Notes: generated by a model not told the origin, from the sequence alone. A stretch of 33,773 nt of DNA from Lophium mytilinum (GCA_010093605.1 MU004192.1:1351299-1385071), one strand, 5' to 3'; numbered from the stretch's first letter, positions 2,148-33,773 are shown. Numbers and translations are program-made.

Positions 2148-2436
2148 TTAGGGTTAATCGCTATAAAGTATTAAGAAAAGAAAGTAATTAGAGGGTAGTA
2201 AGTTTAAGTAGCCGGTAAATTTAATTAGGCGGCCGTTATTAGTAAAGGGAAATAGGTAAAGATAGCAATATATAATTTTAAAAAGTAAAGTAAGGCAGCG
2301 CTAGCGGGGTATACTAGTATTACCTAGTTTTATAGAAATTATATAGAAAAGTATATAGTTATTATCTTATATTAATTAGCCTTAGAGGTTAATAAAGCTA
2401 AATAATGCTTAATTATCTCTTAATAGTAGGAAAAAA

Positions 2437-5930: not shown

Positions 5931-5969
5931 TTCTAGTTAAATTTAGTTAGCTCTATATAGAAACTTATA

Positions 5970-7924: not shown

Positions 7925-8057
7925 TATAGAGTAGAGCGGGAGGGATAGAGAAACTTAGTAGAAAAAAAATTCTATAGAGTAGAGCGGGAGGGATAGAGAA
8001 ACCTAGTAGATAAAAAAGCTTATAGAGTAGAGCGGGAGGGATAGAGAAGCTTAGTAG
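7925..8057. repeat. 48-bp tandem repeat, about 2.8 units (tatagagtagagcgggagggatagagaa...)
   Basis: Units start at 7925, 7973 and 8021. Confidence 0.95.
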
Positions 8058-12511: not shown

Positions 12512-12800
12512 TTAGGGTTAATTACTATAAAGTATTAAGGAAAGAAAGTAATTAGAGGGTAGTAAGTTTAAGTAGCCGGTAAATTTAATTAGGTGGCTGT
12601 TATTAGTAAAGGGAAATAGGTAAAGGTGGCGATATGCGATTTTAAAAAGTAAAGTAAGGCAGCGCTAGCAGGGTATACTGGCGTTACCTAGTATTATAGA
12701 AATTATATAGAAAAGTACGTAGTTATTATCTTGCGTTAATTAGCCTTAGAGGTTAATAAAGCTAAATAATGCTTAATTATCTCTTAATAGTAGGGAAAAA

Positions 12801-15800
12801 TTAAGAATATCTTTCCTTGCGGCCTTATTCCTACCTACGCTATTACTTGCCGGTGCCATGGCCCCTCTTTACTATGCTGCTTCTTAGTGTTTGCTGGCTT
12901 AATTGCGGGAGAGAGGTATTAGTAAGTACTCTTACCCTTACGCGCTTTGCTAAAATCTCCGCTGCGTCTTTAACTCTTAGGGTAGCTTTAATCTCTTTAG
13001 CGCAACCGCTAAGCTAGTACTATCTTATTACCTCTTGCGCCTCTATCTTCTAGTCTTCTATATAGAGTGTATTATATTAATCCTAGTTAATATAGTTATT
13101 AATAAAAAAATAGATAGGGTCTAGGCTAGAGGTAGCTAGTATAATGTGTGCACTTTAGAGGACTTATAGTAGTAGATAGAATTAATATGCTTCTAGCTTT
13201 TATTAGCAGCAGCTATTATTAAAAGCCTAAGAAGCTACCTCTACTAGGCTATAGACGTAATATGGCTTCCTATTATTAATTAGCGCTAGAAGGCAAATAA
13301 AAACTCTAGAGTATACTGCCTATAGGGTGTCTTTACTCTTTAAAATAGGGTCTATAATAGTTACTATAAATTATAGCTGCCCTACTAACCTTCTATTAGT
13401 AATACTAACGCGCGTCTTTCTATTTTTAGTATAGTCTAAGCTATACTCTTACATCTATAGATAGTTGCGTTACTATTCTTAGTTCTACTACTTAGGGTTG
13501 CACTATAGATTTTCTTTTATAAGGCTTTCTAGGTCCTTACTAGCACCTAATTGCTTCTAATATAAAATACTAGCATAGAACTTAAGCTAGAGGTAGCTAA
13601 CCTAGAATAGATTAGGGTCTAATATATCTAGGCTACTAGGCTTAATATATTAGCCTTAGATCTTGCGCCTCTCTTCTTAAATAAATATAGCGGCGGCAGC
13701 TATAAAGTCTAGCTTCTAGCTTATATTAGCTATATACTTAATACTTACTTTTAGATAGTATACTATTTAGCCTTTATAGGAATTATTATATCTAGGCTAT
13801 TTAAAGTTTAAGATATTAATACTTCCTAATACTATTATCTATCGCATTAGCATATCTCTTATTACTGCTAGTTAAGAATAGTAATATTAGTAGTTTAGTA
13901 TATTATTTATAGCCTGGTTATTTATAAGTCTCTAGTTTAATTAGCAGATCTAGGGTAGAAAGTTCTTATAGTTTATTAACTAATACTATAATTTAACTAG
14001 GTGTTAGTATTTTACTTTACTATTTAAGCTAGTATTATAGCTATTAATGGCGCCAAATTTCTATATAAAATTAATATAGTGCTACATAACATAGAATTTT
14101 AGGTAGTAGAAGGCGTAGTTTCTATTCTTATTCCTAGGTCTAAATATTCTAAATTCTAACTTATATATATTAATTTAAGCTATCACCAGCTCTATATACT
14201 CTAGCATAGCCTTATTATATATCTTATACTACGCTAGAATAGTAAAATTAAGCATTACATAGATAAACCAGAGCGCGTTTAGCGCCTTTACTTCTAGTAG
14301 CAGTGCTACTACTACTATAAGCTAGCAGGCTATAGACTTTTATTTAGAGCTAGTATGCTATAAGAGTTTACTAAAATTCTTCTTATTAAATATAGATAGA
14401 CCCAGGAAAGGCGGCATATTCTTAAATTACTTATCTAGCTAGATTAAGCCGCTCTTATTTTCTATTAGAACACGGGCATCTTTTCTTCTAATTGCTAGGG
14501 TGCAGACCTCCACTACTAGTAGCTAGACCCATTTAATAAGATTATAAATAACACCCATAAATAGTTAGTATAGAATATCTATTATTATTATCTAGTAGAT
14601 ATTAGTATAGGGGTGTTTCTAGGTAAAGTTATTTATAGAATATATATATAACTCTATATTAAGCTCTATAGCCTCTATATTACACAGCACTTTATTTAAT
14701 AGAAGTTTTAAACGCTCTTTATTATTGCGTTACTATTTAATCTAAATAATAGTTAAGCAGTAAGACCTTATAGTATATTTAGTCTCTAGGTCTTTATATT
14801 AATACAATAGTACCTAGCATATAGTATAGTATTTTCTAAATTTAATACCTATAAGTAGGCTCTATTCTTTATAATTAGCTATAATCCCGCATAATACTAG
14901 ATAGCACCTTTAATTCTTACTATCCCCGCATTCTAGTATAATTCTATTAGTAGTATATTCTATAATAGCTTATTTTATATTAGAAAACTACTTAGTATTA
15001 GTAAGAATTTTACTAACGCCTAAGAATATAGCCTAAAGAGCTATAGTATAGCTAATACTTTAGGTAGTCTTCTTTATCTACCGTGCTTAGTATAAAGCCT
15101 AGTAGTAGAGTGCTAGGTAATATATTTAAGCGCCGCGTAGTCCTGTCTAGGTTGCTAATAGTTAGATAGACTAGCTATGCGCTCTTATCGCCGCAATATT
15201 AGGTAAGCTGTGTCTTGTCCGCAGAGAGTAAGATAGGTATTACTATAGCCCCTGCTAGAAGCTTTAACTAAGTCTACTACTACTAGTCTAATATATATAA
15301 CTTAGTGTATACCTGCCGGCCTTCTATATTGCGGACTTAAACTAGTATAAATATAAGGTAATTATAGAAAGGGCGGTATCTAATTAGAAATAATATGGCT
15401 GCCATTATATTAAAGTAGTATACTAGATGCTACTCTCTGCTTAAGCTTTATTTTTTACTTAGGAAATGCAGCATCTCTACTATGTAGTTAGTATTACTAA
15501 CGCTATATCTAATTTCCTCTAGTTTACTATTCTATAAATCGCCTAATATAAATATAAGAGAGTTAGAGAATATGCTCTTAAGATAGATGTTATTAAATAG
15601 CAGGTTAATATTATTCTTAGTGCAGCTAATCTACTAAAGCTATAATATAAAAGCATAGTTAAACGCTAATTAAAATAGATAGAAGAGGGATTAGTCCCTA
15701 TAATAGAGTAACTAGTTAGTAAGCTCTAATGCCGCCTTTACAGGCGGGGGGGATAGCGGTCCCTAATAATACTTATATCTACTATCTAGCATTAGCCTAT

Positions 15801-16294
15801 TTAATAGACGCCCCTGCAGGCATACCTAATTTAGTAGAGGGATATACTTCCTCTTATAGTAATAACGTGGACGATATTATTAGTCGGCCTTATTAGTGCG
15901 GAACGTAGAATTTAGTAGCCTCTAGCGGGTTATTATATATTAAGCTTATAGGGCCTCTATTTATAGAAGGCGGACTCTAGTACTCTTTTAGTTTACTAGA
16001 GATATATAGCTCTATTTTATTTATCTTATACTCTATCTTATTACAGGGGTTAGCTAGTAGAGGTAGACTTACTAGTAGTAATCTAGGCGTTTTAAATAAT
16101 ATCCCGTCTATTATTTAAATAACGCGGAGTATATAAGACTAGATTATAGATCTAGTAGTTCTAGTATTAGTAAGCGGGACCCGCTATAGCATTTTAAGGA
16201 GCTTTTTACAGCACAGTATATATTTATTTAGGGCGCTAAGTATTTAGAATAACTTATAGTAGTGTTTATATTTAGTAGAAGGTATATACTCTAT
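12801..16294 (-). pseudogene. Plavaka-family transposase (RIP pseudogene), copy 2
   Basis: The SADKTQL codons are still intact at 15205..15225. NNYI(D)(W)D(Q)YNTLY lies at 13062..13100. A zinc-finger-like (C)KH(C)xKxFxxLxALNK(H)xLxC lies at about 16207..16275. The intron is at 15698..15776 with its donor RIP-mutated to ATAAGT. Confidence 0.93.
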
Positions 16295-16861
16295 TTCTAG
16301 TTAAATTTAGTTAGCCCTATATAGAAACTTATAGATTGTAAGTAATTATTATAGATTATATTAGATTATAGGCTAGTATACAGCACTTATTATTCTTTAA
16401 TAGTACGCGACGTGTTCTAATAGGGGGCGGGCCATTCTATTAGCCTGGAACCTTAATGTATCTACACATTAAAGACTATAGCTTACTTTTTTAAACCGCG
16501 ACCCTAAAGCCTATATATAATTATTTCTATTATTTCTATATTCTTTATAGCTAGTATAAACCTTTATAGTAGATGTAGTTTTAAGCGCATACTAGTAGTT
16601 ATATCTAGTTTCCCTAGTTCTAATAGTATAGCGTATGTTAAAAGTAAGCATTACCTCTTACTAATTTCTAGTATCTAACTTCCTGCCGCAGTTACTAGCT
16701 ACGGCGAAGAACTCTTAACTCTAGGCGAGTGCTATCTAGGTAACATAGAAGAAGATACTAAGTCTAAGCGCGTTACTCCCTTCTATAAGATAAGCGCTGG
16801 GCGGCGATGCATTACTAGTCTAGTAGAATAGAGTTAATAGGCATCTACTAAGAGTGCTGGC

Positions 16862-17356
16862 GTTATTAAGAAGATAGCCGCTAGGGCAAGTACTAGTTGT
16901 AGGACGGCTGCAAGATAGTAATATTAAATGCGCATTAAGCAGCCTAGGTTAAACTCCGCGTCTCTCTTAGCCGGCGCAAAATTAGATAATAGCTAGGAGG
17001 CGCTAGTTAGGTAGGGAGTTTTATAATATTACTAATTTGGCCGCTTAAGCCTCTTGCACGCGGTAGAATTAGCGGCATATATATTAGCAACGACTGCGCT
17101 TAATAAGAATAAGATAGATAGAGAGTAGACAACTTATAAGAACTAGTAAGTAGTAAGGGTGGAGGACTATCTTCTTGCGGATTATAAGAGTGCTTAAGCC
17201 TTTTTTTAATAGTCTATACCGCGCTATTAGAAGTAGGTTAAGTCCTTTAGCTACTTTTATAATAATACCCCGGTAAAACTCTAGGCCCTATTCTATACTA
17301 GGTTAATAGGGAAGCTAAAGAATTATTAAGCCCTTATTAATAGTGCTAGAAATTAG
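16862..17356 (+). pseudogene. 5'-truncated copy of the hypothetical gene at 32625..33599
   Basis: The frame VIKKxAARAST...ALINSARN* matches the 3' half of the 32625 gene. Its 5' half is replaced by unit U sequence. Confidence 0.7.
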
Positions 17357-17530
17357 GCTAGTAGATATTTAGCCCTAGAAAGATATTAGCTTATAGGCTA
17401 TATATATTACTATCTAGTATTTATATATATAACCTATAGTAAATATAATAATAACTTAGTATTTTAAATTAAGTATATAGGTATAGAAGACTTCTAGATT
17501 ACTAACACCTCTAAATTAGTAGCGGGGATG
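16864..17530. repeat. Direct repeat copy V1 (partner 33107..33773)
   Basis: The offset is a constant 16,243 from tattaagaag to agcggggat, with only transition differences. The partner runs off the window end. Confidence 0.97.
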
Positions 17531-17639
17531 CTGCCTCCCGTTTAAGTTACTGGCGCCTATAACTAGTGCTAGTAGTAACTCTTATACTATAGTCTACCCG
17601 GGCCGCCCGCAGGATGTCTAATTATTTTTAATTATTATT

Positions 17640-17909
17640 AATTATTTCTAATTATAGTGGCCCTCTACTACTTACTATATTTTAGCCGACGCTTTAGCTA
17701 TATAGTTCTACATTCTCTAGCTAAGCTTATCTTTACGCGGATTCTACGGTCCGCAATTATCTTACGCGTTTAAGTTATTACTACTATTACTATCTCTATT
17801 AAGAAGCCTAGCGCAGTTCTTAAGGTCTAGAATAGCCTTATAGATATAATCTAAGATAGTTAGCCGCCGGCGTGTTAATTTATTGTCGCCCAAGTATAGC
17901 GTATAGGTA
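17640..17909 (-). pseudogene. Probable exon of a small hypothetical gene
   Basis: A CTAAC...ACAG acceptor at about 17910..17922 is followed by the frame TYTLYLGDNKLTRRRLTILDYIYKAILDLKNCARLL... Confidence 0.35.
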
Positions 17910-18142
17910 CTGTCTTAGTTAGTATTATTATCTTTACCGGTGTTACACTTAGAGTAGAAGTTATTACTTCTATTATAGCTAAAGGCGGAGTAGTAATAGC
18001 TAACTGCTAGGTAGCTGCTTACTTTATAATAGTTAATAGTGCTATTAGCAATTAGTTCTTAGATAAATATAGTAAAACCTCTAGCTATATAGTAGTCTAT
18101 ATAGAAGGTTAGACTATTAATATAGTAGACTTTAGCGGCGTT

Positions 18143-20150
18143 CTATTTATCCCCCTCCGCACTATCGCCAGCCTTAGCCCGGCCAGCCTTAAACTTGTCT
18201 AGTACCTTAGCGTAGTACCTAAGAATATTCTTAATATTATATTTACTATGCCCTTCTAGTCTACCGGTTATCTTAAAGTTATAAACTTGCTTAACCGCAA
18301 CCTATGCCAACTTAAATAGGAATAGAAACTAGTTAGAGCGGCCTTAGTAGAAAATATTAATAGCGTATAGTCCCTCTAGTAGTGTATAATCCTCTATTAT
18401 TAGAACCTAGTACTAATCTAGATATATATAAAGGGGCTTAGTTGCGTTTATAAAGCCCTCTACTATATTATTTATTATATTTACTACATTTAGCGTTATA
18501 GGTAATACTATAAGTATTTTAGTAGCTATATTATATAACACCTTATAAAACTCCTTATAAGTCTAGGCGTTAACCCGTTTCTATAATAAGTTAACTAGTA
18601 TAGTACGCCGGGCGATGTTTTTATATGCCGTCTAAGTAGCATACCGGCGCTTATTATCTAGACTTCGCTCCTCTATATTAGGAGTAGTAACCTTAAAATA
18701 GAGAATATAATCTAGGTCTATATACTTACTTAGAGTATTAATAGAAGAGTAGGTATAGTAGTTACGCTAGGGTATTAGTAGGTGCTTTATAATTCTAATA
18801 AATAGTAGATTAGTTTAGGTAAGAAGTTTAGCCTTCTATAACTCTAGAAGTGGAGGTATAGTTTATAGTAGGTTTAGAGGCTACTTAAGGCTGTGAAATT
18901 CTCTAGCTTATACTTCTATAAACGCTAACTTCTCTAGAGTATCTAGCGTAGATATAACTAGATGCATCTAGGCGAAACTATCTATTATTATAGCCTTAAA
19001 CTTCTTATTAGTGCAGACGGTGTTAAGCGGAGAGTCTACTTAGCTATAGAATATAATCTAGTATAGCTTATTAGTATATAGTAATCTAAATACTAGAACT
19101 ATAAATATAAGCTATATTTATAAGGCTAGACTTCTATTAGCTAATTCTCTATAGATTATATATAAGATAATAGGTATATACTATTTAGAATATAAATTCT
19201 AAGGTAGACTAATATAAGACTTATGCTTATCTTAGACCCTTGCGTAGTAAATGGCGTCCTATATTAACCTCTTGCGGGGTTCTACTAGCTTAGCGGGGGT
19301 GGCCGGTTGGGTTGGAATAATAGTAAGGAAGATAGGGACCTCCGCTAGCTCTTTACTAGCGGTCGCGTTAGTATTACACCTAATTATCTAGCCTTTAAAT
19401 AAGGGCGGTAGGTGTTCTTCTAGAATCTTAAGAACCTTAAGGGTGCCCTTAATAGTAAGGTTATAGCGGTACTTAGGCTTATTTATAGAGGCTACCTTTT
19501 ATAGTTTACGCATGTCTAGATTAAAATAATAAGAGTAAGTGTACTATTATGCACCCGGTATATTAGTAGGTAGGCTAGAGCGCATCTAAGTAGAGATTCT
19601 AAATTGGCACTTAATTATAACTTGCTTTAGTAGCTCTTAGTCTTATAGCGCCTTAGTAAGCTTTACCGCACAGGTGGCATTAGGTATAGTTATTAGAATA
19701 ATAGTAAGGGCGTAGGCGTCTATTACCTCTATTTAGCCTTCTAAGATTAGAATATTTACTATAGAATTAAGTTAGTATTTAGTATATCTCTAGCGCTTTT
19801 AGAGGTTACTATATTTCTCTTTAAAGGTTACTATAGACTTAGACCTATTAGTAGACTATATTATAGTCTTTTAAGTAGTAAGTATCTTCTTAAGTTCTAC
19901 TTTCTATAGTTTATTTAATTTATTTCTTATAACTAAGATTTCGCGTATACTATATAGAAGATTAAAGAATTAGTTAGCGCCCTTAGAGTAGAGTTAGAAG
20001 AAGGGCTTAGTAGCAACCTCTCTATATATAGATTAGTCTATTAAGTCTAGATACTACCGCGTATAAGCTAGACTTACTACTTAGTCTCTATTTAAAGTAT
20101 ATTAGCCTTTGCTATTCTAGACTATATATTACTATTGGGCCTAATATATT
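18143..20150 (-). pseudogene. Large hypothetical gene (over 500 codons, at least one intron; 5' end approximate)
   Basis: One de-RIPable frame runs from the CTAAC...ATAG acceptor at about 19759 to the stop at 18143..18145, with an upstream exon at about 19810..20050. No family was recognised. Confidence 0.6.
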
Positions 20151-20644
20151 TAAATAGTTAGTTAGTATTAGTATAGGTAGATACGCTTATATTCTAAATA
20201 AAATAGTTAGAGTTAGAGGAGAGGCTGTAATTTAATAGCGAGTAGGTTATTAAAAGAGTTTAGGGCTTTAGTCTAATATGCGCTGGTAGTATATTAGCTA
20301 TTATTATAGAAGGTGTAAGTTACTATAGTAGTAGCTGCCTTCTAGAGGGTTAGAGTTAAGGCTAGTATAATATTGGGCTAATAATTAGATTAGAACTAAG
20401 TACTATTATATCTAGTAAGATATTAGTTACATTAAGAGGCTTTTATCTAAACGCGTATCTAATAGCTAAATTACCTAGTAGAATGCAGGTACTATATAGT
20501 AGTTAATTAGTCCCCTAAATATCTAAGTATTACCCTATTATCTTTCTTATCTACTTCTAACCTGCCTCTACTAATTTTAAGCTATACTTAAGGGTTAGCC
20601 TTATAGTATACTATAATAGGTAAATCTAAGTATTACTAATCTAT

Positions 20645-21079
20645 ATATATTCTAGAGGCGTAGCCTATAAGATATAACTGCATAATTCTACTACTTCTAG
20701 AAAGGCTAAATCTGCAAGGAGAAGCGCGCTAACCCGGTTATTAGAGCGCGAGCTGCAAGAGATAGAGAGAGAGCGGAAACTACTAAGTAGAGCCTCTAGA
20801 AAGCGCTGCCTAGAGCAGCGGAGGGCTATAAGAGAGAGAGATATATAGGCTAGTTAAATGCGGACTATAGTTAGCCTAGCGCTAGCGGGGGTAAGTAAGT
20901 AGATAAGGAGTATAATAAATATATAGGTGGGTAACGCTAGTCTTCCCGGGCAGGTTAAAGTGGGCGTTCTCTATATAGAGGCGGTGTGCGCGCTAGTAGA
21001 GGGGCTAGAGGGTAAGGGTGCTTATTTAGTAAGGGAGGAAGTAGGTAAGTAAGCTATTCCGCGGTATAAGCTAAATTAG
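20645..21079 (+). pseudogene. Small basic/helical hypothetical ORF
   Basis: The frame reads SRKAKSARRSALTRLLERELQEIERERKLLSRASRKRCLEQRRAIRERD, with about 50 codons free of stops. Confidence 0.4.
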
Positions 21080-21639
21080 TAATACTTATAAGAAGAGTAG
21101 ATAGTAAGAAGATATATAAATTAGTACTACTACCTACTAGCTTATAGGGCGCAACTTTAGTAGATAATAAGCTACTATTAGAGGTAGAGAGGCGCGCAGT
21201 AGCTTAGGTAATAATAAGTAGTACAGTACCTTCTTAGGTAGCTGCAGCTAACTTCTCTTTCTATTCTAAGGACCTTAACTTATTAGCTACTAATCTAGTA
21301 GAGCTTACAACGCTAACTTAAATAATAGGGGGGGGCACCTATATATAGAAATTAGCCTTCCTCCCTATATTAACTAACCTAGGTAAGTAGAAGGTAATAT
21401 TAGATAGAAGTTATTGCTAATTTATTAAGTATTACTAAAAGCTAATAGGTATAGATAAATATTAAGGTAGAGGCTAATTATTACTAATTATTAGATAGTG
21501 GAGTTTTTTAAGCTATATAACTCTTTACTTCTATTATATTATAATATAGCCCGTTTACTAATTACATACTTAATTATGCGCCACTTTAAACTTTACCTTC
21601 TATCTAGCCTTTTAATTCTAATTCTTATCTACTATTCTT

Positions 21640-21740
21640 ACCTATCTTTCCTCCCTTATCCTCCTCCTCCTCTATCTCTCTCTTCCCTCTCTCTCTCCTT
21701 CTTCTCCTCCCTCCCTTGTACGCTAACTTCCTTCTCTACG
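21640..21740. repeat. Pyrimidine-rich (CT/CCT) low-complexity tract
   Basis: The sequence cctcctcctcctctatctctctcttccctctctctctccttcttctcctccctccc is directly visible. Confidence 0.8.
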
Positions 21741-22122
21741 CCTTAGGCTTGCCTGCGCTTACTATATTTCTAGTACTACTCTATAAGTACTTCTTTAATA
21801 GACGTTGTACCTATTTAAAAGTATAACTAAGAGTAGCTACTTCTATTACTAGCGCGCGCGGATTTATATATCTTCTACTATAGTTACCTTATTTTTTAAC
21901 GCGCGCGATCCTAAGGTTAATTATACTGCGAGTAGTGTCTACTATTATAACTTTATAGGTAAGTAACTATCTTACTTATTACTTACTATTACTATTTATC
22001 TAATATTATTAGCCTCCCGCCCGCCCTCGCCCGTATTGCCGCACAACGCCATTCCATCTACTAACTCTATCCCCTTCTATCTGCCTTCCTTATACCCTAA
22101 CTCCTTATCTTGTTTGCCCGAC

Positions 22123-25100
22123 ATAGCTAAAGGATTAGGTTAATATACTAGTTGCTAATAACGCCTTCCCAACAATTAAAATAATAAGGAGTTTAACCTA
22201 GATAAATAGTTATTAAGTATAGACTCTAGTTAAGTAGACTATAATAGTAATTTAAAGCTGGACGAGCTAGATAACTACTATAGCCGCCGGCCTCCCTATA
22301 GTAGCCGCTAACGCTCTAGACCTGCTTAGGGGAAGGCTATAATACTTCTAGTAGACCTGCTACATAATACATCTTTATAGAGTAAGGCGGCATCTAATTT
22401 TACTAAGAACTCTAAAGGCTACTTAAGTTAAATAAATATTATAGCCGGCTTAGGTCTAGCTTCTAAGGTATAGCGCTAGATAGAAGCCAACTTATTTATA
22501 CTAATAGAGAACTCTAAAGCGTACCTATAGGTAAAACGTCTCTTATAACTAGGCTAAAATAACTATAGTAAGAATAACGCCTACTTAGATACTTAGTCTA
22601 AAATATATACGCTTTTTATAGATATATAGAGTTGCATATTTAAAAAGTCTTCTATATTAGCTAAGTAGAAGTAAGTATATTAAATATTAATCTAGCATAA
22701 AGTCTATAAGAAATATAAGATGCGGGGTAGTATTATTAAAAGTAATAAGAAGTAGAAGCAGTCTAAGTTAGCCTTGTCCGCGAAGTTAGTTGTATTAGTA
22801 GGCCTTAGCTCTCTAATAAAATCCCTAGATATTGCTGCCTAAAATGCCCTATTTAAGCCCCGGCTGTTGCACGCGGTCCTTACTATAATATACTAGCTGC
22901 CGCAGCGGGAAAGCACTAGACGCCTTTTTACTCTCTATCTTATAAGGTCTAGCAGTAAAGGCCTAGAGCTAGAAGACTATAGCTTTATAAAGTTTCTAGA
23001 AGCTATTAATAGAACTTTTATAGACTTTAACCCTCTTAAGTATATTATTATAGTTAATAGAACCTAGAAGTTAATAGAGAATAACTTCTATCTAACTATG
23101 CTATTAAAGAAAATAAAGAGTATACCTAAAGAGATAGTGCTTAGTTTTATAGTAAAGGGCCTTAATATTAGAAAGGCGATATCTAAACTTAAGACTAGAT
23201 GTATATTAATTATTATTAATTATTAAATATTACTACTAACTAATATATAGCTAGGTCTGCACTTTCTTAAGTTCTCGCCCCCTAGTATCCGCCCGGCCAA
23301 GAAACGCCCCCGCCGCAGTAAGCCTAAGGCTGCCGCGGCTAAGAGTCTACCTAAACCTACCGCCGCTAATACTCTAGATAAAATAATTATTAACTTAACT
23401 ATAAGTCTATATATATATATAGCTAATATAGATAGGGTTAATTCTACCGCGGAGTAGAATAAAGGGGAGAAGTGGAAATAGCTGGCAGATATAGCGAAAG
23501 CAGAGAGAGAAAAGAAAGAGAAAGAGAAGAAGGAGAAAGAGTTGGCGGAGAAAGAGCTGGCGGAGAAAGCGCTAGCAGAGAAAGCGCTGGCAGAAATAGC
23601 AAAAGCAGAGAAAGAAAGAAAGGAGAAAGAGATAAAGGAGAAAGAGATAAAGGAGAGAGAGCTAGCAGATATAGTAATAGCGGAGAAGGCTAAGAAGTAG
23701 ATAGAATAGAAGGAGAGAGAGCTAGCTAAGACCGCAACTAAAGAGAAAGCAAAGAGGTAGAAATAGCTAGAAGAGGCGGCGGAGTAAGAGGAATAAAGAA
23801 AGTAGAAACTACTAGTAGAGAAGAAGGTATAGAAGCTATAAATAGAGAAGAAAGCGTAACTACTTTAATAGATGCTTAATATTATCTAGCTATATACTAA
23901 GTTAATGCGTAATTCTATTTAGCCTAGTATTATCTATAATAAGGTTATATAGTAGCTTAGGGCGCTTAGGCCTAGAACTACTTAGTACCTAACTGCCTAA
24001 AAATAACTCTATGCGCTTATAGTTACTATAAAGAGCGGCTAGACTATCCCTAGTAATATCTAAGTTGCGGGGGATATAGTAATTAGCAGTATTAATATTA
24101 CGGCTACGCTTAAATTTAATATATATAGTCTTAGTAAGACTAGACCCTCTATAGATATAAATAAGATAATTATAGCTAATATAGAGAAGGTAGATGCTAT
24201 TAATATTACTACTATAATAGCTCTAATATTAAGCTCTATAAAGAATATCTTAGTAGCAGTGTTTAAGAAGATGCTATAGTTTTTTAGTTTGCCTTTAATG
24301 TATAGGAATTTTTCTAGTAATGCAACCTTTAAGCTGCTAGGAATAACTACTAACCTAAAGATGCGTGCAGCCCTATACTAGGTGGCCGGGACGTATAGTA
24401 TTATCTAAGGTCTCGCTGGCAGGGCGCGTAGGCTAATTCTTGCAGACCCCTCTAGAATAGGAAAAACTCTATAAATATTAATAGCATTTACTACTTATGC
24501 TAGAGAGGCTAGCACTAATGCTCCGCGTTCTAGTAGTGTTAAAGGCTATATTATTTAGCTTACTAAGAAGAGTCTACTAAATTAGACCTATAAGGAGGTA
24601 AAATACTAGCTAGATATTAAATATAAGAATAAGAATTTTAAGGTCCCTAGTAGAAGACTTTATATCCGGCGTATATATAGAAGCATTATAGAGGGTAACC
24701 TTACTTCTAAAGACTAGAAGAACCTTAGGCCTATCTACTAAGAAATAAATAGTCGGGTGTAGTATAAGCTAAATCTAAAAGCAAAAACCTACCTTATTAT
24801 TACAAGCGCGGAGACCTTTAATAAAAAATGTAATAAGAATTTAAACTTACTAGAGACCTTTATAATATTCTATAACCTATTATATAGTAATAAAGTAACC
24901 CCTATATATATATATAGGGCCGTTTTTTTTAATAAGTTCTACCTAGGATTTAATAATATATCTCTATATATTACGGCTTTTAGCTATATTAAATCTATAC
25001 AGTGTTAGCATACATTCCGCCTAACTACGCGTAAATGGGCAAATATTAACTATACGCTTAATCGGGTTTATTAGGGCTAGGACTTAGAAGGGTTTAATAA

Positions 25101-26580
25101 GGCTGCTAATCTATATAGTTACTCTAAAGGCTTATTCTATAGCGGGACTTCTTTTCTCTACGGCCCTAAAACTCTATTATATTTAATAGTTATACTATAT
25201 AGAGGTTTATAGACGCTAACTTAAATAGCGGACCTAACTAACTTAGACGCTAATATTAAAGACAACCCGGATAATACTCTTCTAGATAAGGAGTTAAAGA
25301 AAGAGAATATAGATAAAGGGGATAAGTTTAATATTTTTTATTAAGGCCCTACCCTCCGGCGTGTTAATTAAGGAGACCTTATAGGGGCTAGAGGTTACTA
25401 CCTCGCCTTAAAAATAGAGAAAGAGTAGCAACTATAGAATAATTCTAAATTGTCTAGGCGTCTCTAGAGAGTATTAGATGTAATTATAGCTATAAGTATC
25501 TATAGAACGCTAATAAGCCTTAGCCTAGATAGCCTTCCCTTAGGGGATATGCCGCTCTATATTATATAGTAGGTAATAGTTAGTATACCTAACCGCTTTA
25601 AACCCTTTATTAAGGAGTACTATATAGTTATTAAAGAGAGATATATAGACCTTAAAGAAGAGTATAAAGAATAGCTAAGGTATAAAGTAGTAATTAATAA
25701 GCCGCCGCCTTTCTTTAGCCTAGGCGCCTTTCTAACGGGCTCGGGCAAGGGAAGGCTGCCCTGGATTTTTATATTAATTCCTGGGCTAGCTAAGTTAAAG
25801 ACGCAATAGGAAGAGCTTAGCTTAATAAGTAACCTAACCTTTACTCTAGAAGATATTAAAAATGCGGGCTAGATAGATTATATAGACTTAGAGAGTACCC
25901 TTACTAAATAGTATACTAACCTACTAGCTAATTTAGGGAAGCTAAAGAAGATTAGGAGCATAGTTTAACACATTTAAGCTAAGAAGAAGAAGATACTAAT
26001 TATTAGTAAGGAGCCTATAGTTAATTTAGTTATCTGCATTATAAGTTGCTACCCATCTCTATCTATAATTGGCGATTATTATCTAATAAACTAATATAAT
26101 TAATACTAGATAATTATAAAAACTATACTAACTAAAAAGCTTGCATAGTTATATTTATCGCTAATAGTTAAGTAATAGAAGTAATTTAACACTGGCTTTA
26201 AGCGTAATTAAGATGATCTAGCGGCCGTTAATATTCTAGTCGCAAACTAGAAGACTAGAGAAGTAGAAGGCTCTAACTTTACTTTTTAATATATGTGCGT
26301 AATAGTTATAGAGCTATAGACTGCATCTAGCCTTAAGGTATAGATTATATCTAGAGTATGGCGGAAGAACTAGAGGTCTAATAGAACATGCAGTATTATT
26401 CTTGCCTATATAGGGGGTAATAACCTAGTAGATGCGCTAGCTTAGTTCTATGCAGTTAATAATAATAAGTTTATATATAAGGTTATGTAAAGTGTACTAA
26501 AAAAAAAGGAAAACTAAGGAACTATTAGTACTAAGGTAACTACTAAATATACTAATTATATAGTGTATATAGTTCTATAG
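22123..26580 (+). pseudogene. SNF2-family (SF2) ATPase/helicase-like gene, about 1,400 codons, RIP pseudogene
   Basis: The motifs are ordered and in frame: (H)(Q)VAG; motif I LILADPS(G)xGKTL(Q) with GKT at 24460..24468; motif Ia KSLLx(Q)TxxEVKx(W)L at about 24568..24612; motif II VFF-NKFY, de-RIP DEFH, at 24931..24942; motif III YSGTS at 25138..25152; SIxRT...LGDMP; GKLKKI...KxLIIS at about 25936..26006; motifs V/VI EGSNFT...VxE(P)(W)...(Q)IxSRVWRKN(Q) at about 26265..26373. Introns are at about 23201..23250, 23401..23434 and 26041..26109. Confidence 0.85.
23533..23667 (+). repeat. 15-bp coding repeats (EKELA/EKALA/EKEIK) forming an E/K/A-rich coiled coil in the SNF2 gene
   Basis: gagaaagagttggcg, gagaaagagctggcg, gagaaagcgctagca, gagaaagcgctggca, then gagaaagagataaag twice, all in the same frame as the ATPase motifs. 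Confidence 0.88.
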
Positions 26581-27914
26581 TAGACATTATAAAATAAACT
26601 ATTCTAACTTCTACTTCTATAATACACCTGTAATCGCCGCATTAATAAGTATACTATATCTATAGTAGGTCTACTATAGACTGCCTATTTTTAATATTAA
26701 TATAATCTACTTAACTATATACTCGCCGCAAGGCTTAGGTATTAGCGGTGCGAGCCTTAAATGCAATTTAAGGCCTAAGTATTAGTAATATAAACTATAG
26801 CATTATATAGGTAAATATCTATATAGCGGCGCCAATGCTCTATAGGCCCGCATATATTATTAGTAATATTCTTGCACGTTATAAGGCATAGAAAGGTTAT
26901 AAGAACCCTCTATCCTACTCTTCTAATCTAGACCGCAGGATGTTAGTAGCTAGTATGCGTTTAATCTTGCTTATATTTCTAATAAAGAGATTTAAATAGA
27001 GTAGCCTATAAATTAGAGTGCACTATAGGCCTATAGTAGTATAATTTAGTGCCGTATATATATACTAGCTAAAAGAAAACAGGTAGAAAAGTATATACTT
27101 ACTAATGCTAAGCCCTTTCTAGCTACCTATATTTTAATATACTACTAACACCACGGCTAATTAAATGTAGAGATAAGTTAGGTTAGTTTTAAGATAGTAT
27201 AATATATTTATATGCCACTCTATAGCTAATTTAGACGCTATCTATTTATAACCTTTCTACTTAATTTAGAAAATACTCTAAAATACTATTATATTTATTA
27301 CGCTTCTTAATATATTTAAGTCGCTAGAGAAAGTATATATTCCTAGTCCTAGCTATTATATAAATTAAATAAGAGTATCCTAAAATAGGCGTGTAGGCCT
27401 ATACTCTTATAATATTAGTATCCCTATACTATATATAATTAGCTAAAGCCCTAAAGCATTATAACGGCGCCCTATAATAACGTTAATAATTATAAAAAAG
27501 GGAGCACCGCCTAAGCATACATTTAGATAAATAAACCGGGCCGTTATATAGTAATAGTTAATAATAGAGCATTATTTATAATTATCTCTAACACTTAAAT
27601 GTATAAATATATTAGGCAGCAGCATAAAATATAGAATTTTCAGCCCAATACTAAACTATCTAGATCTTATACTAATAACTTAATAAATGCTGGGTTACTA
27701 TTAATGCGAAGGGGCTTTAGTTTCTTCTTAAGAGAAGAGGTAGTATAGGTATTCTATTAATTACTATAAAATAGTTACTGCTAAAGTAGCTAATTTAGTT
27801 ACGTAGACGCAATAAGAGTCTAGTCTTAGCACCCTATTATCTAAATACGTATATAAATTAACTCTAACTTTACCTTTTCTACCCCTTCTACACCCTAAGA
27901 ATTGTTAAACCGTT

Positions 27915-28676
27915 ATGTTGTTAGATAAATAAGGCTAGTTTCTAATACCTAATAACCTTAAGCTAGACTCTAGAAATAAGCTTATATAGGGCCTTAATAT
28001 TAGCGCCTGCAAATACAACACGCTATATACCGCGATAGAGACTAAGATAAAATTAGTAGACCTACTAGGCGGATCCCTCTACTTAAAGATAATTAGGGGG
28101 ATAGTATAATCTATAATAATAGACATTATAAAGAAGTTTTCTAAAATGCTTTTACGCGTTCTACTTAAAGAAGAATATAAGTAGATATTAAAACTTATAT
28201 AGTAATACAACTATAATAAGAAAAGATAAGATTATATTAACGCGTCTTATTATTCTAATTCTATAGATACTCCGCCTACTAAATAAAATAGGACTTTACC
28301 GCACCCTAAATGCTACCGCAGTTCAGCGCATATAGAAATAAAGTTAATATTAGTAAAGTAGCTAGGTAGTAAGGCCGCCCGCATTATACTAGTATATAAA
28401 CTTGCACCACCCACGCTACTAAAGAGTATGCTAGTAATACTGGCCCCTAAATTTAGTATACTTGTTGCTAGGTTAAATATAATATTTAGTCTTAATATAG
28501 AACGCAAAACTATATATTACTATATTATAGATAATCTTAAGTTTCTAGTTAAGAATAAGGTAGACTAGTATATAGTAATAGTGCATTAGAGTTTATTAAG
28601 AGAACTAGACTATATTACCCTAATTATTAAGCCTTAGCTAAATAGTATATTAGACACATGCAACGATTTTAATTAA
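27915..28676 (+). pseudogene. Hypothetical gene of about 250 codons
   Basis: An intact ATG at 27915 follows a pyrimidine-rich leader, and a single de-RIPable frame runs to TAA at 28674..28676. The supplied ORF 28313..28507(-) is its antisense shadow. Confidence 0.6.
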
Positions 28677-30038
28677 TATAGCTAACGTAGATAGATAACA
28701 CCCCTGTATCTATCTACTCTAGCTAGCACTATGCTATTCTTCTACCTATACCTATATTAGCCTCTGCTAGTTATAAATGCCTGCGTAATAAGATAAATAA
28801 GTAAGAGATTAGAGCTGTAGAAAAAGTTAAAAAGAATATAAGAGTTATATAAGAGATAAGAGTATAGAACTATAAAAGGTAGAGAACTTAGATAGCGCAA
28901 GAGTCTATATATCTAGCTAACCTAATTTATAATTAGACTATTCTATAGCCCGCCTTACTAAGAGAACTAGACTAGAACTACACTATCCTAAGGCGGGGCC
29001 TTATTATAACCTTATACTATCTTACTAGACTAGAATATAGACAGCTTAATATCCCTATATATAGGTAGTATAGAGTTATCTAAACTATAGCTATTATTAG
29101 AACTAGAAGTATAGCTATATAGCTAAATATTCTAACTAGATATATAGATTCTATAGGGGGGGAATTTACTACTAGCAGACTACCCTTCTATTCTTCTATC
29201 TAGGGACCTCTCTACTATAGAGGAGTACCCTGTAATATAGTATATAACCGCTTATAGCATAGTAACTAATAGAGGGCCGGAATTATAGAAAGAAGGCCTA
29301 AATAGTAGTAAAGAGAATGTTTTAGGCTAAGAGAGAGGAGAATATAATAGCTTAAGGTTACGCAATTTAGTTAGTAAAGGTAGAGGCGTTTATTATAGAT
29401 AATATAGAAGAGGGATATATACTATAGCTAGAGGAGATAGCTAGCGGGTTATTTGCGCCTAAGTAGGTTGCCCGACCGGGGATAAAGTTAGCGATAAGGG
29501 GACGGCTGCGCGTTGCGACATTAATACCTCTATTAGGGCCTCTAACTTAGCCAGCTATCTATCTAATAATATAGAATATAAAGTCTATAATCTCTTAACT
29601 AACTACTATTCTAATAGCGTAGGAGATACTATCTAGAAATAATAGCGGGAGGTGGCAGCGCGCGTGCAGTAATTAGTAGAAGTTAACGCAAGTGCGCAAG
29701 TATAAGCTCTAGTCTAAGGCGATATAATAGGAGAGGTAATTATATAGATAGAAGTGTTTAATTATATAGAATAATAGGGCTTTATTAAGGGGGGGATAGA
29801 GAAGAGGTATATAACTAGCTAAAGATACTAAGTTAACGCGTATAGACTGCATCCGGCTAGCTCTATTACATCCTATTATAATAAACGCGCGACTTACTCC
29901 CTCTTTATTCCCTTCTCTCTACGCTACTTAATTATAATCTACTTTACTTCCCTTTATAGTTATTATTCTTGCACTCTACCTTAAGAAATAGAACGTTCTT
30001 TTACTACACGCCCCCTATCTATTATTTAGTAAGGCTTA

Positions 30039-32376
30039 ATGTTACCTACTTAAATATAGTAAAAGGTAATATAGAACTATCTCTCTCTACCCTAAATAGG
30101 GACTTACTATATAACTTAAATATACTATACTATATACCCTATCTATAGTATATATTAATATATATATAGCTAATGCGTATAACTATAGATAGTAAAGAAG
30201 TAAAAATGCGCTGCCTTAAAACTAATTAACACAGTAACGCGCCTAGCTCCCTTAACTCTAACGCCTGCCAACTAATAATAAATATATAGAACTTAATAAG
30301 TAAAAGAGAATATACTACTAGGATATTCTAAGATAGTAATGCTATATTATCTTGGCCGTCTAGCCGTACCTTATCTCTTGCTAGAAAGAGAAAACGCGGT
30401 ATAGAGGACGAGAACAGGCACGCGCCTATCTTTTAATCTAGTAATACTAACTTCCGCGTGTAAATAGACTTTAAGTATAAGATTAGCTTATATATATATT
30501 ACGGCCACTCTACTAAGTAGTGCATGCTAATAAATACCTATTAGGGTGCCGCTGTAGTCTAAGATAAGATAGCGGCTAGAATAGAAGCCTGTAGAGCCGT
30601 TAACTAAATAACTAGGTCTAATACCTTTATATTAAGCGGTCTACTATTCTCCTCTTCTACTAGCCGCTTCTTAGGTACGGGTAGAGGTACACCCGTCTAT
30701 AACTGCATTAGCTCCCTTAGCATAAAATAATATAGTAAAATAATTTAGATATAGAATAGCGTAGATAGGCATGCTAAAGTACTAACTATAGAGGTAAAAT
30801 ATATAGTAGTAAAAGAATAAATAAGATACTAGATACTTAGAAGTATAGTATTAGGCACTAATATAATTAAGGAATATAGTAATAACCTTATAGCCTAGAC
30901 TAAGAGTGTTAGGCTAGATATATTTTAGTAAGTGCTAATATAAATATAGGTAGATGTCTATAAAGACTAACTATTCTATACTTAAGCTAATATCCCTACT
31001 ACTCTAGACCCTTTTTACGCGCGGAAGGTATATTACTCTCTCCCCACTCCTATAACCTTATATAATGGCTAATTATAATATATAATCTAGATTTATAATA
31101 CTTTTAGTTATTTCTATAATACTATAATAAAGGTTGCTTATAATATTATGCAAGAATGCTATAGTCTTAGTTCTATAACTCTAGATATTACCGGCACCGC
31201 GTTAACACTAATAAAGGATTGGAACTATCTCTTTAGGGCAGATAAAGACTAAGCTAAGGTTAGTTACTAACCTAGCATTAGACAGCATTCTAATAGATTA
31301 TAGGGGCCACCGGTAATCTTTATAGCTGAGGCTATCTAGGTAGTAGTTATAGACCTACTCTTTATAGGATAGTCTATAAACGCCTTAGAAATATAAAGAT
31401 ACTTAAAAGAGTTTTTTAACCCCCTTTTAGGTAATACTATTATATATATATATACTTGCCTCTACTATACTATTAGTAAATATACCTTGGGCTAGAAGCG
31501 CATAAACCTAATTTATAGGGTTGCCGCCACTAGTATTAACTACCGCCCCCCTTATATAAGACTATACTAACTACAAGCTGGGGTAGTAAATTATAATAAA
31601 TGTCTTGCCTAATAGCGGGCACTTAGCTTACGCCGCGAGCACTAACTATTATCCTACTAGCAAGAATTTATTATAAAATAGGTAGGTCGGCATATAAACT
31701 ATAAAGAAGATAATAATAAGAATATATATAATAACCCCAACCGCTATAATATATTAGATTTAACTAAAGATATAATACTGGAATAATAATAGGCCTTTAC
31801 CGCGAGAGTGGCAAGAATAGAAGTAAAGGAGCGGGATTGGCAGCGGAACCTTATTAACTAACGCAAGAAGACACGTGCGCTAATAAAGCGCATTAAGAGC
31901 GAAGCATAACTATTTAACTCTAGGTACTTGTCCTTACTATATTTAATTCCATCTAGCCCCCCCCTTAGGGATACTTTATTAAATATTATAGATAGTATAG
32001 GTAATTGCATAAGGCAGAGAGCTAAAGTATAATATACTAATTATATTAACTATAGAATAATAAGATTAATAATATAGAGCCCCTTACTAATAATAACTTA
32101 TACTACTTAGCTCTAATTTATAGGGAGGCTAAGGAGAGTGTTAAGATAAAGGACTACTAGAAGCGGTGCCCTCTTAATCTCTTATTTATATAATTTAGGC
32201 AGCGGTTCTATATAAAGGAAGATAAATACGGCTGGTATAAAAATAATACTATAATTATGTCTAATAAGGACTAATATTAAAAGTTTATAGCTGCCTGCGT
32301 TAAGGCATAGGATTCTAGAGAAGAAAGCCTGCGGCTAGTTATTAAGTTGCTTAAAAGTATTAGGGATAAGAAATAG
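30039..32376 (+). pseudogene. Multi-exon gene with an NLS (RKRKR) and a DUF6532-like domain
   Basis: There are at least 5 introns (e.g. AAG|GTATAT at about 31028, AAG|GTTAGT at about 31259). Exons 31091..31640 de-RIP to VAxxxMQECYxL...LxKDWNYLF...IFxAEAIxxVVxDLLF...EFF(D)PL...YTCLYxxIS(E)YTLG, which resembles the DUF6532 motif order as recalled, not as searched. Confidence 0.5.
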
Positions 32377-32624
32377 TAGCATGGAATTAGTAAATAGGGT
32401 GTAAGTAGGCTCTATTTTATGCTTAGCGTTATCTTTCTATTTTATAATATATGTACCGTAATTAGATGCGTTCTAAATTACTATATAGTCTACTATCTAA
32501 CGCGCAATATATATATTGCGTGCTATTCCCTAGCCTAGATATCTAGCGCACGCGTTACTGGCTCTAATAGTCTACTAGGATATTAAAATTATTAAGGTTA
32601 GTAATAGTTATATAATTCTTAGAA

Positions 32625-33599
32625 ATATGTACAGGCATTACTATCTATATAACGCATAAAGTCTATAATGTATGCAAAGTTACTATAGACTATAAAGCCC
32701 TAGCGGAGGTAGTAAGAAGGGATAACTAGATATACTAGTGCAACTTTAAATTTCTTACTACACGCGATAATTATATATTTAGTGTATAAGGCCCCATCTA
32801 CGTTATTATTTATCTATCTACAACCTAGGCGGATTAGGCAGTTTTAGAAGGTTAGATAGAGGAGGTAGATAGCTACATTTATAAGGACTATAAAGTAGTT
32901 ATTAACTATAATAATTGCCTATAATGCTAGATTATCTATAATTAAGAATTATCTACGCAGCCTGCGCGTAAATTTTATATAAGAAGTGGGTAAACTTTTA
33001 TAGAGTGGCGTAAAGCCTGCAGAGCGGTAAAATATATAGTCTTCTAGAAGGTTATATAAGTAACTAGTATTCTCCGCGCGTTTCTTAATTTAGAAATTTC
33101 TAATATTATTAAGAAGACGGCCGCTAGGGTAAGTACTAGTTATAGAATAGCTATAAGATAGTAATATTAGATACGCATTAAGTAGCCTAGGTTAAACTCC
33201 GCGTCTCTCTTAGCCAGCGCAAAATTAGATAATAGCTAGAAGGCGCTAGTTAGGTAGGGAGTTTTATAATATTACTAATTTGGCCGCTTAAGCCTCTTGC
33301 ATGCGGCAGAATTAGCAGTATGCATGTTAGCGATAACTACGCTTAATAAAAATAAGGTAGATAGAGAGTAGATAACTTATAAAGACTAGTAAGTAGTAAA
33401 GGTAGAGAACTATTTTCTTATAGATTATAAGAGTACTTAAGCCTTCCTTTAATAGTCTATACCGCGCTATTAAAAGTAGGTTAAGTTCTTTAGCTACTTT
33501 TATAATAATACTCTAGCGAAACTCTAGGCCCTATTCTATACTAGGTTAATAGAGAAGCTAAAGGATTATTAAGCCCTTATTAATAGTACTAGAAATTAG
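32625..33599 (+). pseudogene. Hypothetical gene of about 325 codons, Cys/His-containing N-terminal half
   Basis: The frame (M)CTGIT...HKVxxVCKV...CxxC...EWRKACRAVK...LEISNIIKKTAAR continues in frame across the repeat boundary at 33107. Confidence 0.6.
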
Positions 33600-33773
33600 G
33601 CTAGTAGATATTTAGCTCTAGAAAGATATTAGCTTATAGGCTATATATATTACTATCTAGTATTTATATATATAATCTATAGTAAATATAATAATAACTT
33701 AGTATTTTAAATTAAGTATATAGATATAGAAGACTTCTAGATTACTAATACCTCTAAATTAGTAGCGGGGATA
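33107..33773. repeat. Direct repeat copy V2 (partner 16864..17530), truncated by the window end
   Basis: Same alignment as V1. Each copy has RIP changes that the other lacks. Confidence 0.97.

Follow-up and report, generated by a model that had tools for sequence, protein, structure and literature searches.

The window analysed here, a stretch of 33,773 nucleotides of Lophium mytilinum DNA, holds a large repeat unit (unit C) housing the relic of an SNF2-like gene, together with two Plavaka transposase relics in the repeat units A and B (Table 1). It is RIP-mutated fungal repeat DNA over its full length, with a GC content of 32% and RIP indices of 1.79 (TA/AT) and 0.32 ((CA+TG)/(AC+GT)).

Table 1. 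Features of the window; positions are counted from its first nucleotide.
Feature	Position	Strand	Basis and remarks
Plavaka transposase relic, repeat unit A	4162..5092	-	PF18759, 53.5 + 46.9 bits
Plavaka transposase relic, repeat unit B	14526..15459	-	PF18759, over two frames
Repeat unit C, 16.24 kb, houses SNF2-like relic	16864..33105	.	self-match, contig pieces
SNF2-like pseudogene, frame +1	22801..26500 (limits approximate)	+	stop density, 10-block chain
Basic patch PAKKRPRR, NLS-like	23293..23316	+	read directly, frame +1
IIINLT	23383..23400	+	read directly; IIDLT with one TpA site reversed
E/K/A/L(Q)-rich low-complexity tract, 5-residue tandem repeats	23460..23870	+	15-nt register
Q-motif block MRAALY*VAGTYSII	24361..24405	+	7.8 bits in chain
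Motif I / Walker A, LADPSRIGKT	24439..24468	+	block I
Motif Ia block II*LTKKSLLN*TYKEVK	24550..24603	+	5.3 bits, anchored chain; hhalign-aligned
Motif II, NKFY	24931..24942	+	block 8.8 bits, within noise alone
Motif III, SGTS	25141..25152	+	block 7.1 bits; hhalign on SGTP column at E 0.24
Motif V-VI region, ending Q-I-I-S-R-V-W-R-K-N-Q	26275..26373	+	3.2 + 6.7 bits in chain

Repeat units and transposon relics

Copies within the window become nearly indistinguishable when purines and pyrimidines are collapsed, their identity rising to 99.95% and 100%. Contig pieces with at least 80% identity to positions 14000-33773 numbered 4507 in run X1 and 4684 in run X2, and run X3 yielded none; the copies differ almost solely by transitions (in run X1, at 1410 places against 6 for transversions), and every copy seen bears RIP. 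Units A and B are sister copies (1-6509 and 10365-16872, 94% identity), and the segment U (6510-10364) has only its first ~12 nt in common with unit C, in purine/pyrimidine terms. A second copy of unit C starts at 33107, 1 nt after the end of the first, and runs off the window; positions 16863-17529 and 33106-33772 are 92% identical, and 100% identical after collapsing purines and pyrimidines. This repeat may represent an LTR pair, a tandem duplication or abutting TIR elements. Summed contig depth is roughly even along unit C, indicating that the SNF2-like gene travels with the unit, and 7 to 15 contig variants cover the gene sites 25127 and 25685. The self-matches and contig pieces bear out an earlier proposal, made in a preliminary description of this DNA, that the gene is repeat-borne: it lies in a multi-copy unit of 16.2 kb.

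The same description had pointed to Plavaka as a lead, and aptly so, as the window has Pfam-significant transposase relics at distances of 7.3 kb and 17.7 kb upstream. With a cut-off of 26.3, the two PF18759 matches in unit B scored 63.2 bits (E 3.1e-17) and 50.7 bits (E 2.1e-13); PF18759 was found in units A and B and not in the SNF2-bearing unit C, in which a scan of six frames found no transposase or reverse transcriptase. The Plavaka transposase and the SNF2-like gene occupy separate, abutting repeat units. Unit C has a further candidate ORF at about 29.7-32.4 kb, in frame +2, with a weak match to DUF6532, a domain that the literature searched names next to Plavaka and says no more about.

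PlavakaB elements have the termini 5'-CATCA..TGATG-3' and target site duplications of 2-3 bp, according to the portions of the source available (PMC12730594). Unit C starts with TATTA at 16864 and ends with TAATA at 33105, ends that by their sequence are compatible with RIPped CATCA..TGATG, these pentamers being common in this DNA (13.2 and 11.2 per kb); its terminal inverted match extends over ~9 nt only. The link between unit C and Plavaka is possible on the grounds of adjacency and of these common 5-nt termini, and the SNF2 gene of unit C is possibly the cargo of a Plavaka-type transposon.

Reading frame and N-terminal features

Between 22123 and 26580, the 1486 codons of frame +1 include 95 stops, all of them TAA or TAG; the other forward frames have 182 and 218. 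Stop density stays at 0-5 per 50 codons over the extent of the gene and climbs past 26550, with spikes at 23701-24000 and 26101-26250; the pseudogene may contain introns, for example around 26020-26150. Because of its 95 in-frame stops this copy is a pseudogene, without present function.

The three N-terminal features described previously were all recovered. PAKKRPRR lies where it had been placed, is encoded by GC-rich codons that are not RIP products, and looks like a putative nuclear localisation signal. The string given earlier as II(D)LT reads IIINLT, and since its Asn codon AAC is preceded by T, reversal of RIP gives IIDLT, a string that we take to resemble a SUMO-interaction motif. The E/K stretch, put at about 130 codons, measures ~137 and is rich in E, K, A and L, with ten copies at a periodicity of 15 nt and matches to itself.

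Scoring of the motor motifs

Standard searches brought up no SNF2 match for the reading frame. Pfam, applied to frame +1 with stops read through as X or Q, gave no family at E up to 10, PF00176 and PF00271 included; phmmer gave 0 matches at E <= 0.001 among 1,835,955,588 representative proteins, nine PDB matches that were antibody chains throughout (E 0.37-0.44), and no PDB match for the C-terminal 111 residues. A word-indexed search, covering proteins of 404-1288 residues, left 0 of 7999 candidates at E <= 10, and plain hmmsearch with the SNF2 profile described below found nothing in six-frame translations. Neither protein, word-indexed nor metagenome searches found an intact single-copy parent or homologue. 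Three loci from a metagenome scan with a degenerate motif I pattern were rejected as chance matches, none of them SNF2. Pfam does detect the equally RIPped Plavaka domain, unlike the SNF2-like ORF, so the latter is either more degraded or truly divergent. The uniform failure of Pfam, phmmer, PDB and word-indexed searches also speaks for a reading in which frame +1 is not SNF2, the motifs having been over-read from a chance Walker-A-like string combined with low stop density, or from another P-loop/SF2 protein; on the scores below, we consider this improbable.

We built an SNF2 profile from 74 sequences selected on the pattern ADEMGLGKT, a selection that inflates the motif I score, with the nulls carrying the same bias. 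All six source ORFs tested had PF00176 plus PF00271, and the PDB matches listed for the profile included ISW1, Rad5 and Rad54-like chains (E <= 1e-87), with 1z3i (Rad54) the last of the 60 listed. In RIP-aware local Viterbi scoring, frame +1 reached 11.7 bits and the other five frames at most 1.3 bits. The matched stretch (24358-24498) contains the Q-motif block, as does the hhalign match, which aligned Q, I and Ia in order with E 2e-4 over 61 columns, where two control frames gave 0.81 and 0.11. Block I (24430-24483) scored 24.6 bits, and the runner-up anywhere in the window, over its six frames, had 5.5 bits. A chain of ten blocks scored 79.8 bits, a value reached by 0 of 200 shuffles (44.0 +/- 5.4) and by 0 of 84 other slices of the window (46.9 +/- 6.7), whereas a DEAD-box control profile obtained 3.8 bits only, falling on the E/K tract. 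A motif I unique in the window and flanked by a Q-motif before and Ia after, the failure of the DEAD-box control, and a low stop density over 3.7 kb with TAA and TAG as the sole stops all argue against a chance origin of the motifs.

Downstream of motif I the signal is collective. An anchored chain of seven blocks scored 38.2 bits (null 20.4 +/- 6.1), with the C-lobe alone undetected; of 6023 natural anchors 4 scored as high, and of 300 shuffles none did (p ~1e-3), which again argues against over-reading. Apart from motif I, single blocks have 2-9 bits, against noise of up to 9-15 bits elsewhere in the window; neither the C-lobe nor the II-III sub-profile picked its expected site, the top II-III matches (10.5 bits) falling in the Plavaka relics, and the motif V-VI region on its own is not significant. 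The weakness of the single blocks and of the C-lobe favours the reading without SNF2. So does the failure of a naive score that took the best residue of all RIP reversals, which we rejected because it gave 64.2 bits for frame +1 and 74.0 elsewhere in the window (mean 49.5).

Individual motifs can be followed at the codon level. Motif II has the codons aat and aag, each after T, and tac, and three TpA reversals turn it into D-E-F-H, so that a DExH box is recovered exactly at TpA sites, a further point against the reading without SNF2. SGTS and SRVWRKNQ (26350-26373, with R-V-W-R at 26353-26364) read as previously reported. SGTS might have arisen from SGTP by RIP, though this needs a C-to-T change outside CpA. 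Residues W, K and N in RVWRKNQ, like P and S in motif I, cannot come from canonical CpA/TpG RIP and are probably ancestral.

The RIP-aware scoring and hhalign support an SNF2-like ORF. The broader statement that the SNF2 motifs are all present and in sequence stands in part: it holds for motif I and for the succession Q-I-Ia, motif II reads as DExH solely after TpA reversal, and the seven downstream blocks beat the null jointly but none is significant singly, and the C-lobe sub-profile misses its site. The lobes are separated by no RING, in agreement with what had been noticed before: a C3HC4 pattern finds no match in frame +1 of 22123-26580, even if TAY is allowed to stand for RIP-masked Cys or His, and the 341 codons of the III-V spacer comprise 2 for Cys, 1 for His and 18 TAY. 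This argues, as the preliminary description did, against a canonical origin of the Rad5/Rad16/Uls1 type. Rad5 has an N-terminal HIRAN domain and Uls1 a SIM cluster; one IIDLT-like string, at 23383-23400, is seen here.

Discussion

We conclude that unit C probably carries a RIP-inactivated SNF2-like pseudogene within a multi-copy repeat, most likely amplified as the passenger of a DNA transposon. The ancestral gene would have comprised ~1,200 codons and encoded an SNF2-family (superfamily 2) ATPase without a RING, whose two-lobed motor followed a basic patch and a helical region rich in E and K; to judge from its motifs, the protein may have used ATP hydrolysis to travel along double-stranded DNA in the manner of SNF2 enzymes. 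The gene appears to have been integral to the many-copy 16.2-kb unit when RIP struck all copies, and RIP would have converted Gln and Trp codons of this copy to its 95 stops, besides changing residues at many further sites. Amplification as a passenger is most likely because unit C adjoins a Plavaka (CACTA/EnSpm-like) relic and no transposase was detected within unit C itself.

The passenger may have been a captured host SNF2 gene, perhaps RING-less and Rad54/ATRX-like, that was amplified with a transposon or segmental repeat, destroyed by RIP, and never served the element; we give this a substantial chance, somewhat short of even. CACTA-type elements are gene capturers, which favours capture, as does a unit C devoid of transposase. 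Precedents come from X3X3R8, a RIPped unit interpreted as an endogenous gene cluster that became amplified (PMC3017866), and from the transposable element-mediated amplification of a housekeeping gene reported in Dothideomycetes (PMC6710886), both as described in the portions of these papers available. Given such precedents a captured host gene is as likely as the element-encoded translocase that the preliminary description favoured. Capture is disfavoured by the failure to find an intact single-copy parent or homologue among the databases searched, by residues that RIP does not explain and that depart from the core remodeller consensus (P-S in motif I, F in DEFH, W-K-N in motif VI), and by the window having neither a UBC nor a second SNF2 relic, so that the gene content of X3X3R8 is absent from it.

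A gene adapted to the element, that is, a transposon's own SNF2 translocase aiding transposition or opening silenced chromatin by analogy with transposon-borne TET/JBP dioxygenases, is the view of the preliminary description, and we think it unlikely. In its favour, the TATTA...TAATA ends are the expected RIP products of the PlavakaB termini, and fungal DNA transposons carry dioxygenases of the TET/JBP type, in the text available of PMC12730594; the even contig depth, by which the gene travels with unit C, the divergent motifs and the absent RING point the same way. Against these stand the RIP in every copy seen, termini that are short and common in this DNA, the lack of homologues in the databases searched, and the lack of any SNF2 cargo example in the Starship cargo literature searched or in the available text of PMC12730594. 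The suggested role in mobility or against silencing is unsupported; this copy is dead, and the others differ from it almost solely by RIP-type transitions. A fuller version, in which unit C would be a transposase-less Plavaka-type transposon, mobilised in trans by the adjacent family with a transposase, whose RING-less Rad54/ATRX-like SNF2 cargo countered heterochromatin silencing until RIP extinguished it, seems to us quite improbable. Such an SNF2 cargo, equipped with a charged helix as well as a nuclear localisation signal and a SUMO-interaction motif, would in function parallel the TET/JBP cargo of KDZ and Plavaka elements.

Our preferred reading, an SNF2-like pseudogene amplified as a passenger and inactivated by RIP, illustrates that RIP-degraded genes escape ordinary homology tools and that mutation-aware scoring can recover them. 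Should Plavaka-type transposons truly carry an SNF2 remodeller of their own, an ATP-dependent motor would join the few kinds of anti-silencing cargo in fungal DNA transposons, at present TET/JBP.

In the relic Q, I and Ia follow one another as in the SNF2 family, and II (DExH), III (SGT) and VI (Q-x3-R-x2-R-x2-Q) seem to keep to the family's arrangement and approximate spacing as well. The relic differs in having no Pfam match, in an Asn in place of the Gly of R-x-G-Q, in a motif I of the form ADPS-G and not ADEM-G, and in a gap between motifs II and III of ~70 residues, compared with ~30 in the SNF2 profile. Rad54 has an aromatic residue in place of His in motif VI (RVWRDGQ); the aromatic R-V-W-R and the missing RING give the relic a possible likeness to the Rad54-like grouping.

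RIPped repeats with SNF2-like helicases have been in print since 2010 (PMC3017866). As described in the portions of that paper available, X3X3R8 of Parastagonospora (Stagonospora) nodorum is a RIPped unit of 26 kb, an amplified endogenous cluster, with three Rad5/SNF2-like helicases and a Rad6/UBC gene (Hane & Oliver 2010, PMC3017866). Unit C is like it in being a multi-copy, RIP-degraded repeat of tens of kb in a filamentous ascomycete, with an SNF2-type helicase poorly seen before RIP reversal, and is set apart from that published description by a single SNF2-like relic without a RING and without a UBC relic. The best RIP-aware score for a UBC relic in the window, 6.0 bits, stayed below the highest value from shuffles, 8.8, and the window, which may not span the whole unit, shows one motif I only and no second SNF2 relic; the combination of Rad6/UBC and several SNF2-like helicases typical of X3X3R8 is thus not found in it.

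Among fungal DNA transposons, the CMCT/Plavaka and KDZ groups include carriers of cargo, reportedly described by Iyer et al. in 2014. Large CMCT/Plavaka and KDZ elements carry TET/JBP dioxygenase cargo, argued to help them escape silencing by methylation, and the Plavaka families concerned come from Agaricomycotina, as far as the available text of the source extends (PMC12730594). The cargo published there is TET/JBP and not an SNF2 ATPase, with 0 mentions of SNF2 in the text available (PMC12730594), and a full-text search on Starship cargo gave no SNF2 example, its one mention being of an irrelevant SWIM domain. In the CMCT/Plavaka and KDZ elements a gene for chromatin or DNA modification lies alongside or apart from the transposase; here, likewise, an SNF2-like unit adjoins a Plavaka relic.

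Repeat architecture and RIP state

The window is 28-37% GC in all 1-kb bins of its 33.8 kb, and its indices of repeat-induced point mutation (RIP), TA/AT = 1.79 and (CA+TG)/(AC+GT) = 0.32, are far past the usual thresholds. Self-comparison paired unit A (1-6509) with unit B (10365-16872) at 94% identity, and 16863-17529 with 33106-33772 at 92%; collapsing bases to purine/pyrimidine raised these values to 99.95% and 100%, respectively (the latter comparison also given as 16857-17530 vs 33100-33773). The copies therefore differ by transitions only, as RIP produces, and were essentially identical before RIP, having gained almost no other mutations since. Between both copies of the second repeat lies unit C, which contains the SNF2-like relic and whose second copy begins one base past the end of the first. 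Three repeat junctions (6494-6512, 16857-16875, 33100-33118) have in common a stretch of ~19 nt, …CYGGCGT(T)TATTARGAARA…, identical as purine/pyrimidine and near-palindromic in its least mutated form (CTGGCG-T-CGCCAG), with different left and right partners at each (A/U, B/C, C/C). U, the unique stretch between A and B, has tandem repeats at 7921-8064 (3 x 48 nt) and 9405-9566 (2 x 81 nt).

Two contig sets from one organism and one sample, X1 and X2, share 56% and 52% of the words sampled from the locus; 4507 and 4684 of their pieces, respectively, were placed on 14000-33773 at at least 80% identity. Differences in X1 fell at 371 places as A>G, 325 as C>T, 353 as G>A and 361 as T>C, against 6 places with transversions. 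Summed depth, which is contig depth and hence no copy number, was similar in order across all 30 bins, and 7-15 distinct contigs covered two variable positions within the gene, 25127 and 25685. These contigs show many diverged RIP-related copies, the SNF2-like segment included, bearing out the preliminary description of the reading frame as repeat-borne.

A SNF2-like reading frame

Of 1486 codons in frame +1, 95 are stops; the other forward frames have 182 and 218. Among the 95 there are TAA and TAG only, the RIP products of CAA, CAG and TGG. Stop density is 0-5 per 50 codons from ~22.8 to 26.1 kb except in a Q-rich stretch (23.7-24.0 kb); a second exception, a spike at 26.10-26.25 kb, looks like an intron, and stops climb again beyond 26.55 kb. 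PAKKRPRR, II(D)LT and the E/K-rich stretch, previously described ahead of the motor domain, are all there in frame +1 (Table).

Table. Coordinates of features in the window
Feature	Position	Strand	Size or evidence
Plavaka transposase relic (PF18759), unit A	4162-5092	-	Pfam on read-through translation, 53.5 and 46.9 bits
Plavaka transposase relic (PF18759), unit B	14526-15459	-	Pfam on read-through translation, 63.2 and 50.7 bits
Unit C	16864-33105		16.24 kb
PAKKRPRR	23293-23316	+	frame +1 reading
IIINLT	23383-23400	+	IIDLT with one TpA site reversed
E/K/A/L-rich region	23460-23870	+	15-nt tandem units

Standard searches were silent: Pfam found zero families at E <=10 on the locus; phmmer with the read-through protein gave 0 matches at E <=0.001 among 1,835,955,588 representatives and, in the PDB, 9 matches to antibody chains only (none with the C-terminal part); and 0 of 7999 word-sharing candidates reached E <=10. 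This led us to make a generic profile of SNF2 proteins, 482 positions long, from 74 ORFs on viral contigs picked by motif I pattern. All six ORFs tested by Pfam were PF00176 + PF00271, and the alignment of the same 74 ORFs (A1) matched ISW1, Rad5 and Rad54-like chains in the PDB at E <=1e-87. Each codon of the window was scored by how likely it is under each possible ancestral residue, with TpA allowed from CpA or TpG; a 'best reversal' scoring was dropped, equally high scores having come from elsewhere in the window.

The RIP-aware local match in frame +1 reached 11.7 bits at 24358-24498 (Q motif and motif I), with the other five frames at <=1.3 bits, and motif I alone scored 24.6 bits, the runner-up across six frames of the window being 5.5 bits. 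Using the plain read-through protein, hhalign aligned Q-I-Ia with A1 over 61 columns (E 2e-4; two control frames, 0.81 and 0.11), and a DEAD-box control profile built likewise matched the E/K tract only, at 3.8 bits. A 10-block collinear chain scored 79.8 bits, reached by 0/200 shuffles (44.0 +/- 5.4, max 66.9) and 0/84 other slices of the window (46.9 +/- 6.7, max 70.3). Motif II reads N-K-F-Y, with all three departures from D-E-x-H at TpA sites.

The earlier claim that all SNF2 motifs occur in order holds up only in part, Q-I-Ia being the firm portion. Seven blocks downstream of motif I, chained with motif I omitted and family-like gap limits, scored 38.2 bits (null 20.4 +/- 6.1); 4 of 6023 overlapping natural anchors, and none of 300 shuffles, score this high. 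This chain puts Ia at 24550, II at 24919-24954, III at 25132 and VI at 26314, where they had been found by eye. Singly, however, blocks other than motif I score 2-9 bits, within the noise elsewhere in the window, which reaches 9-15 bits; the middle and C-terminal parts alone fell below significance in hhalign against A1, and RIP-aware II-III and V-VI sub-profiles did not pick the expected sites in the window. The top local matches of the II-III sub-profile (10.5 bits) lie in the Plavaka relics, at 4329-4451 (-) and 14693-14815 (-), and are probably spurious resemblance. The Plavaka relics show that some domains in RIPped window DNA are still visible to Pfam, yet Pfam sees no SNF2 in equally RIPped DNA. 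We consider it probable that frame +1 is a SNF2-family relic, the assignment being solid at the beginning of lobe 1 and suggestive elsewhere.

Kind of SNF2-like protein and its possible carrier

No RING-like C3HC4 pattern occurs in frame +1 (0 matches), even with TAY codons counted as RIP-masked Cys or His; the RING is absent as previously described, and a canonical Rad5/Rad16/Uls1 origin, which the preliminary description had also disfavored, is therefore unlikely. Because copy differences are nearly pure transitions, residues beyond the reach of canonical RIP are probably ancestral: P-S of motif I, F of D-E-F-H, and W-K-N of R-V-W-R-K-N-Q. R-V-W-R may echo RVWRDGQ of Rad54 and the aromatic residue that the Rad54/ATRX group has at this position. 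SGTS in motif III may be a RIPped SGTP, which would require a C-to-T change outside CpA. A metagenome scan with the pattern of the gene's own motif I returned 3 loci, all chance, and no homologue was obtained.

Upstream of the SNF2 relic and in divergent orientation to it, the unit B Plavaka relic is 7.3 kb away. Each of the two Plavaka relics occupies two reading frames whose profile ranges overlap (189-216), pointing to an intron or indel. In unit C, Pfam found no transposase or reverse transcriptase in any of the six frames. The sole match there is DUF6532 (PF20149; 31088-31501, 15.7 bits, E 0.014), below the cut-off of 24. Downstream of the SNF2 relic, unit C may contain a second gene in frame +2 (~29700-32400), the frame with the fewest stops there, which also has a weak CENPH match. 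On the reverse strand, one frame at 17100-19800 is stop-poorer than the others (15-20 per 300 codons) and has zero Pfam matches.

Unit C opens with TATTA at 16864 and closes with TAATA at 33105, the expected RIP products of CATCA..TGATG, the PlavakaB termini given in PMC12730594. Since these pentamers are common in the window (13 and 11 per kb), the inverted terminal match is ~9 nt only, and a second copy abuts the first, a Plavaka-type cargo element without transposase is plausible only.

The earlier observation is largely real: the frame is best read as a RIP-killed SNF2-like pseudogene in a high-copy repeat adjoining Plavaka transposase remains. The protein might, as first proposed from sequence, have aided mobility or countered silencing; a captured host gene rather than an element-serving one is at least as likely.

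Comparison with known systems

Fungal DNA transposons, Plavaka among them, carry TET/JBP as likely anti-silencing cargo according to PMC12730594; SNF2 is mentioned nowhere in that paper. Main-text literature on Starships, Plavaka and RIPped SNF2/helicase elements yielded no report of SNF2 cargo in such elements. The case carries modest weight unless intact relatives link the SNF2 ATPase to a transposon. X3X3R8 of P. nodorum is described as a 26-kb RIPped repeat with Rad5/SNF2-like helicases and a Rad6/UBC gene, recognisable only once RIP was reversed in silico (Hane & Oliver, PMC3017866). In contrast, the window has no UBC relic (best RIP-aware score 6.0 bits vs a shuffle maximum of 8.8) and, across six frames, no second SNF2 motif I, so that membership of the same family is not demonstrable. 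RIPped SNF2-bearing repeats are already known, and the window adds another case.
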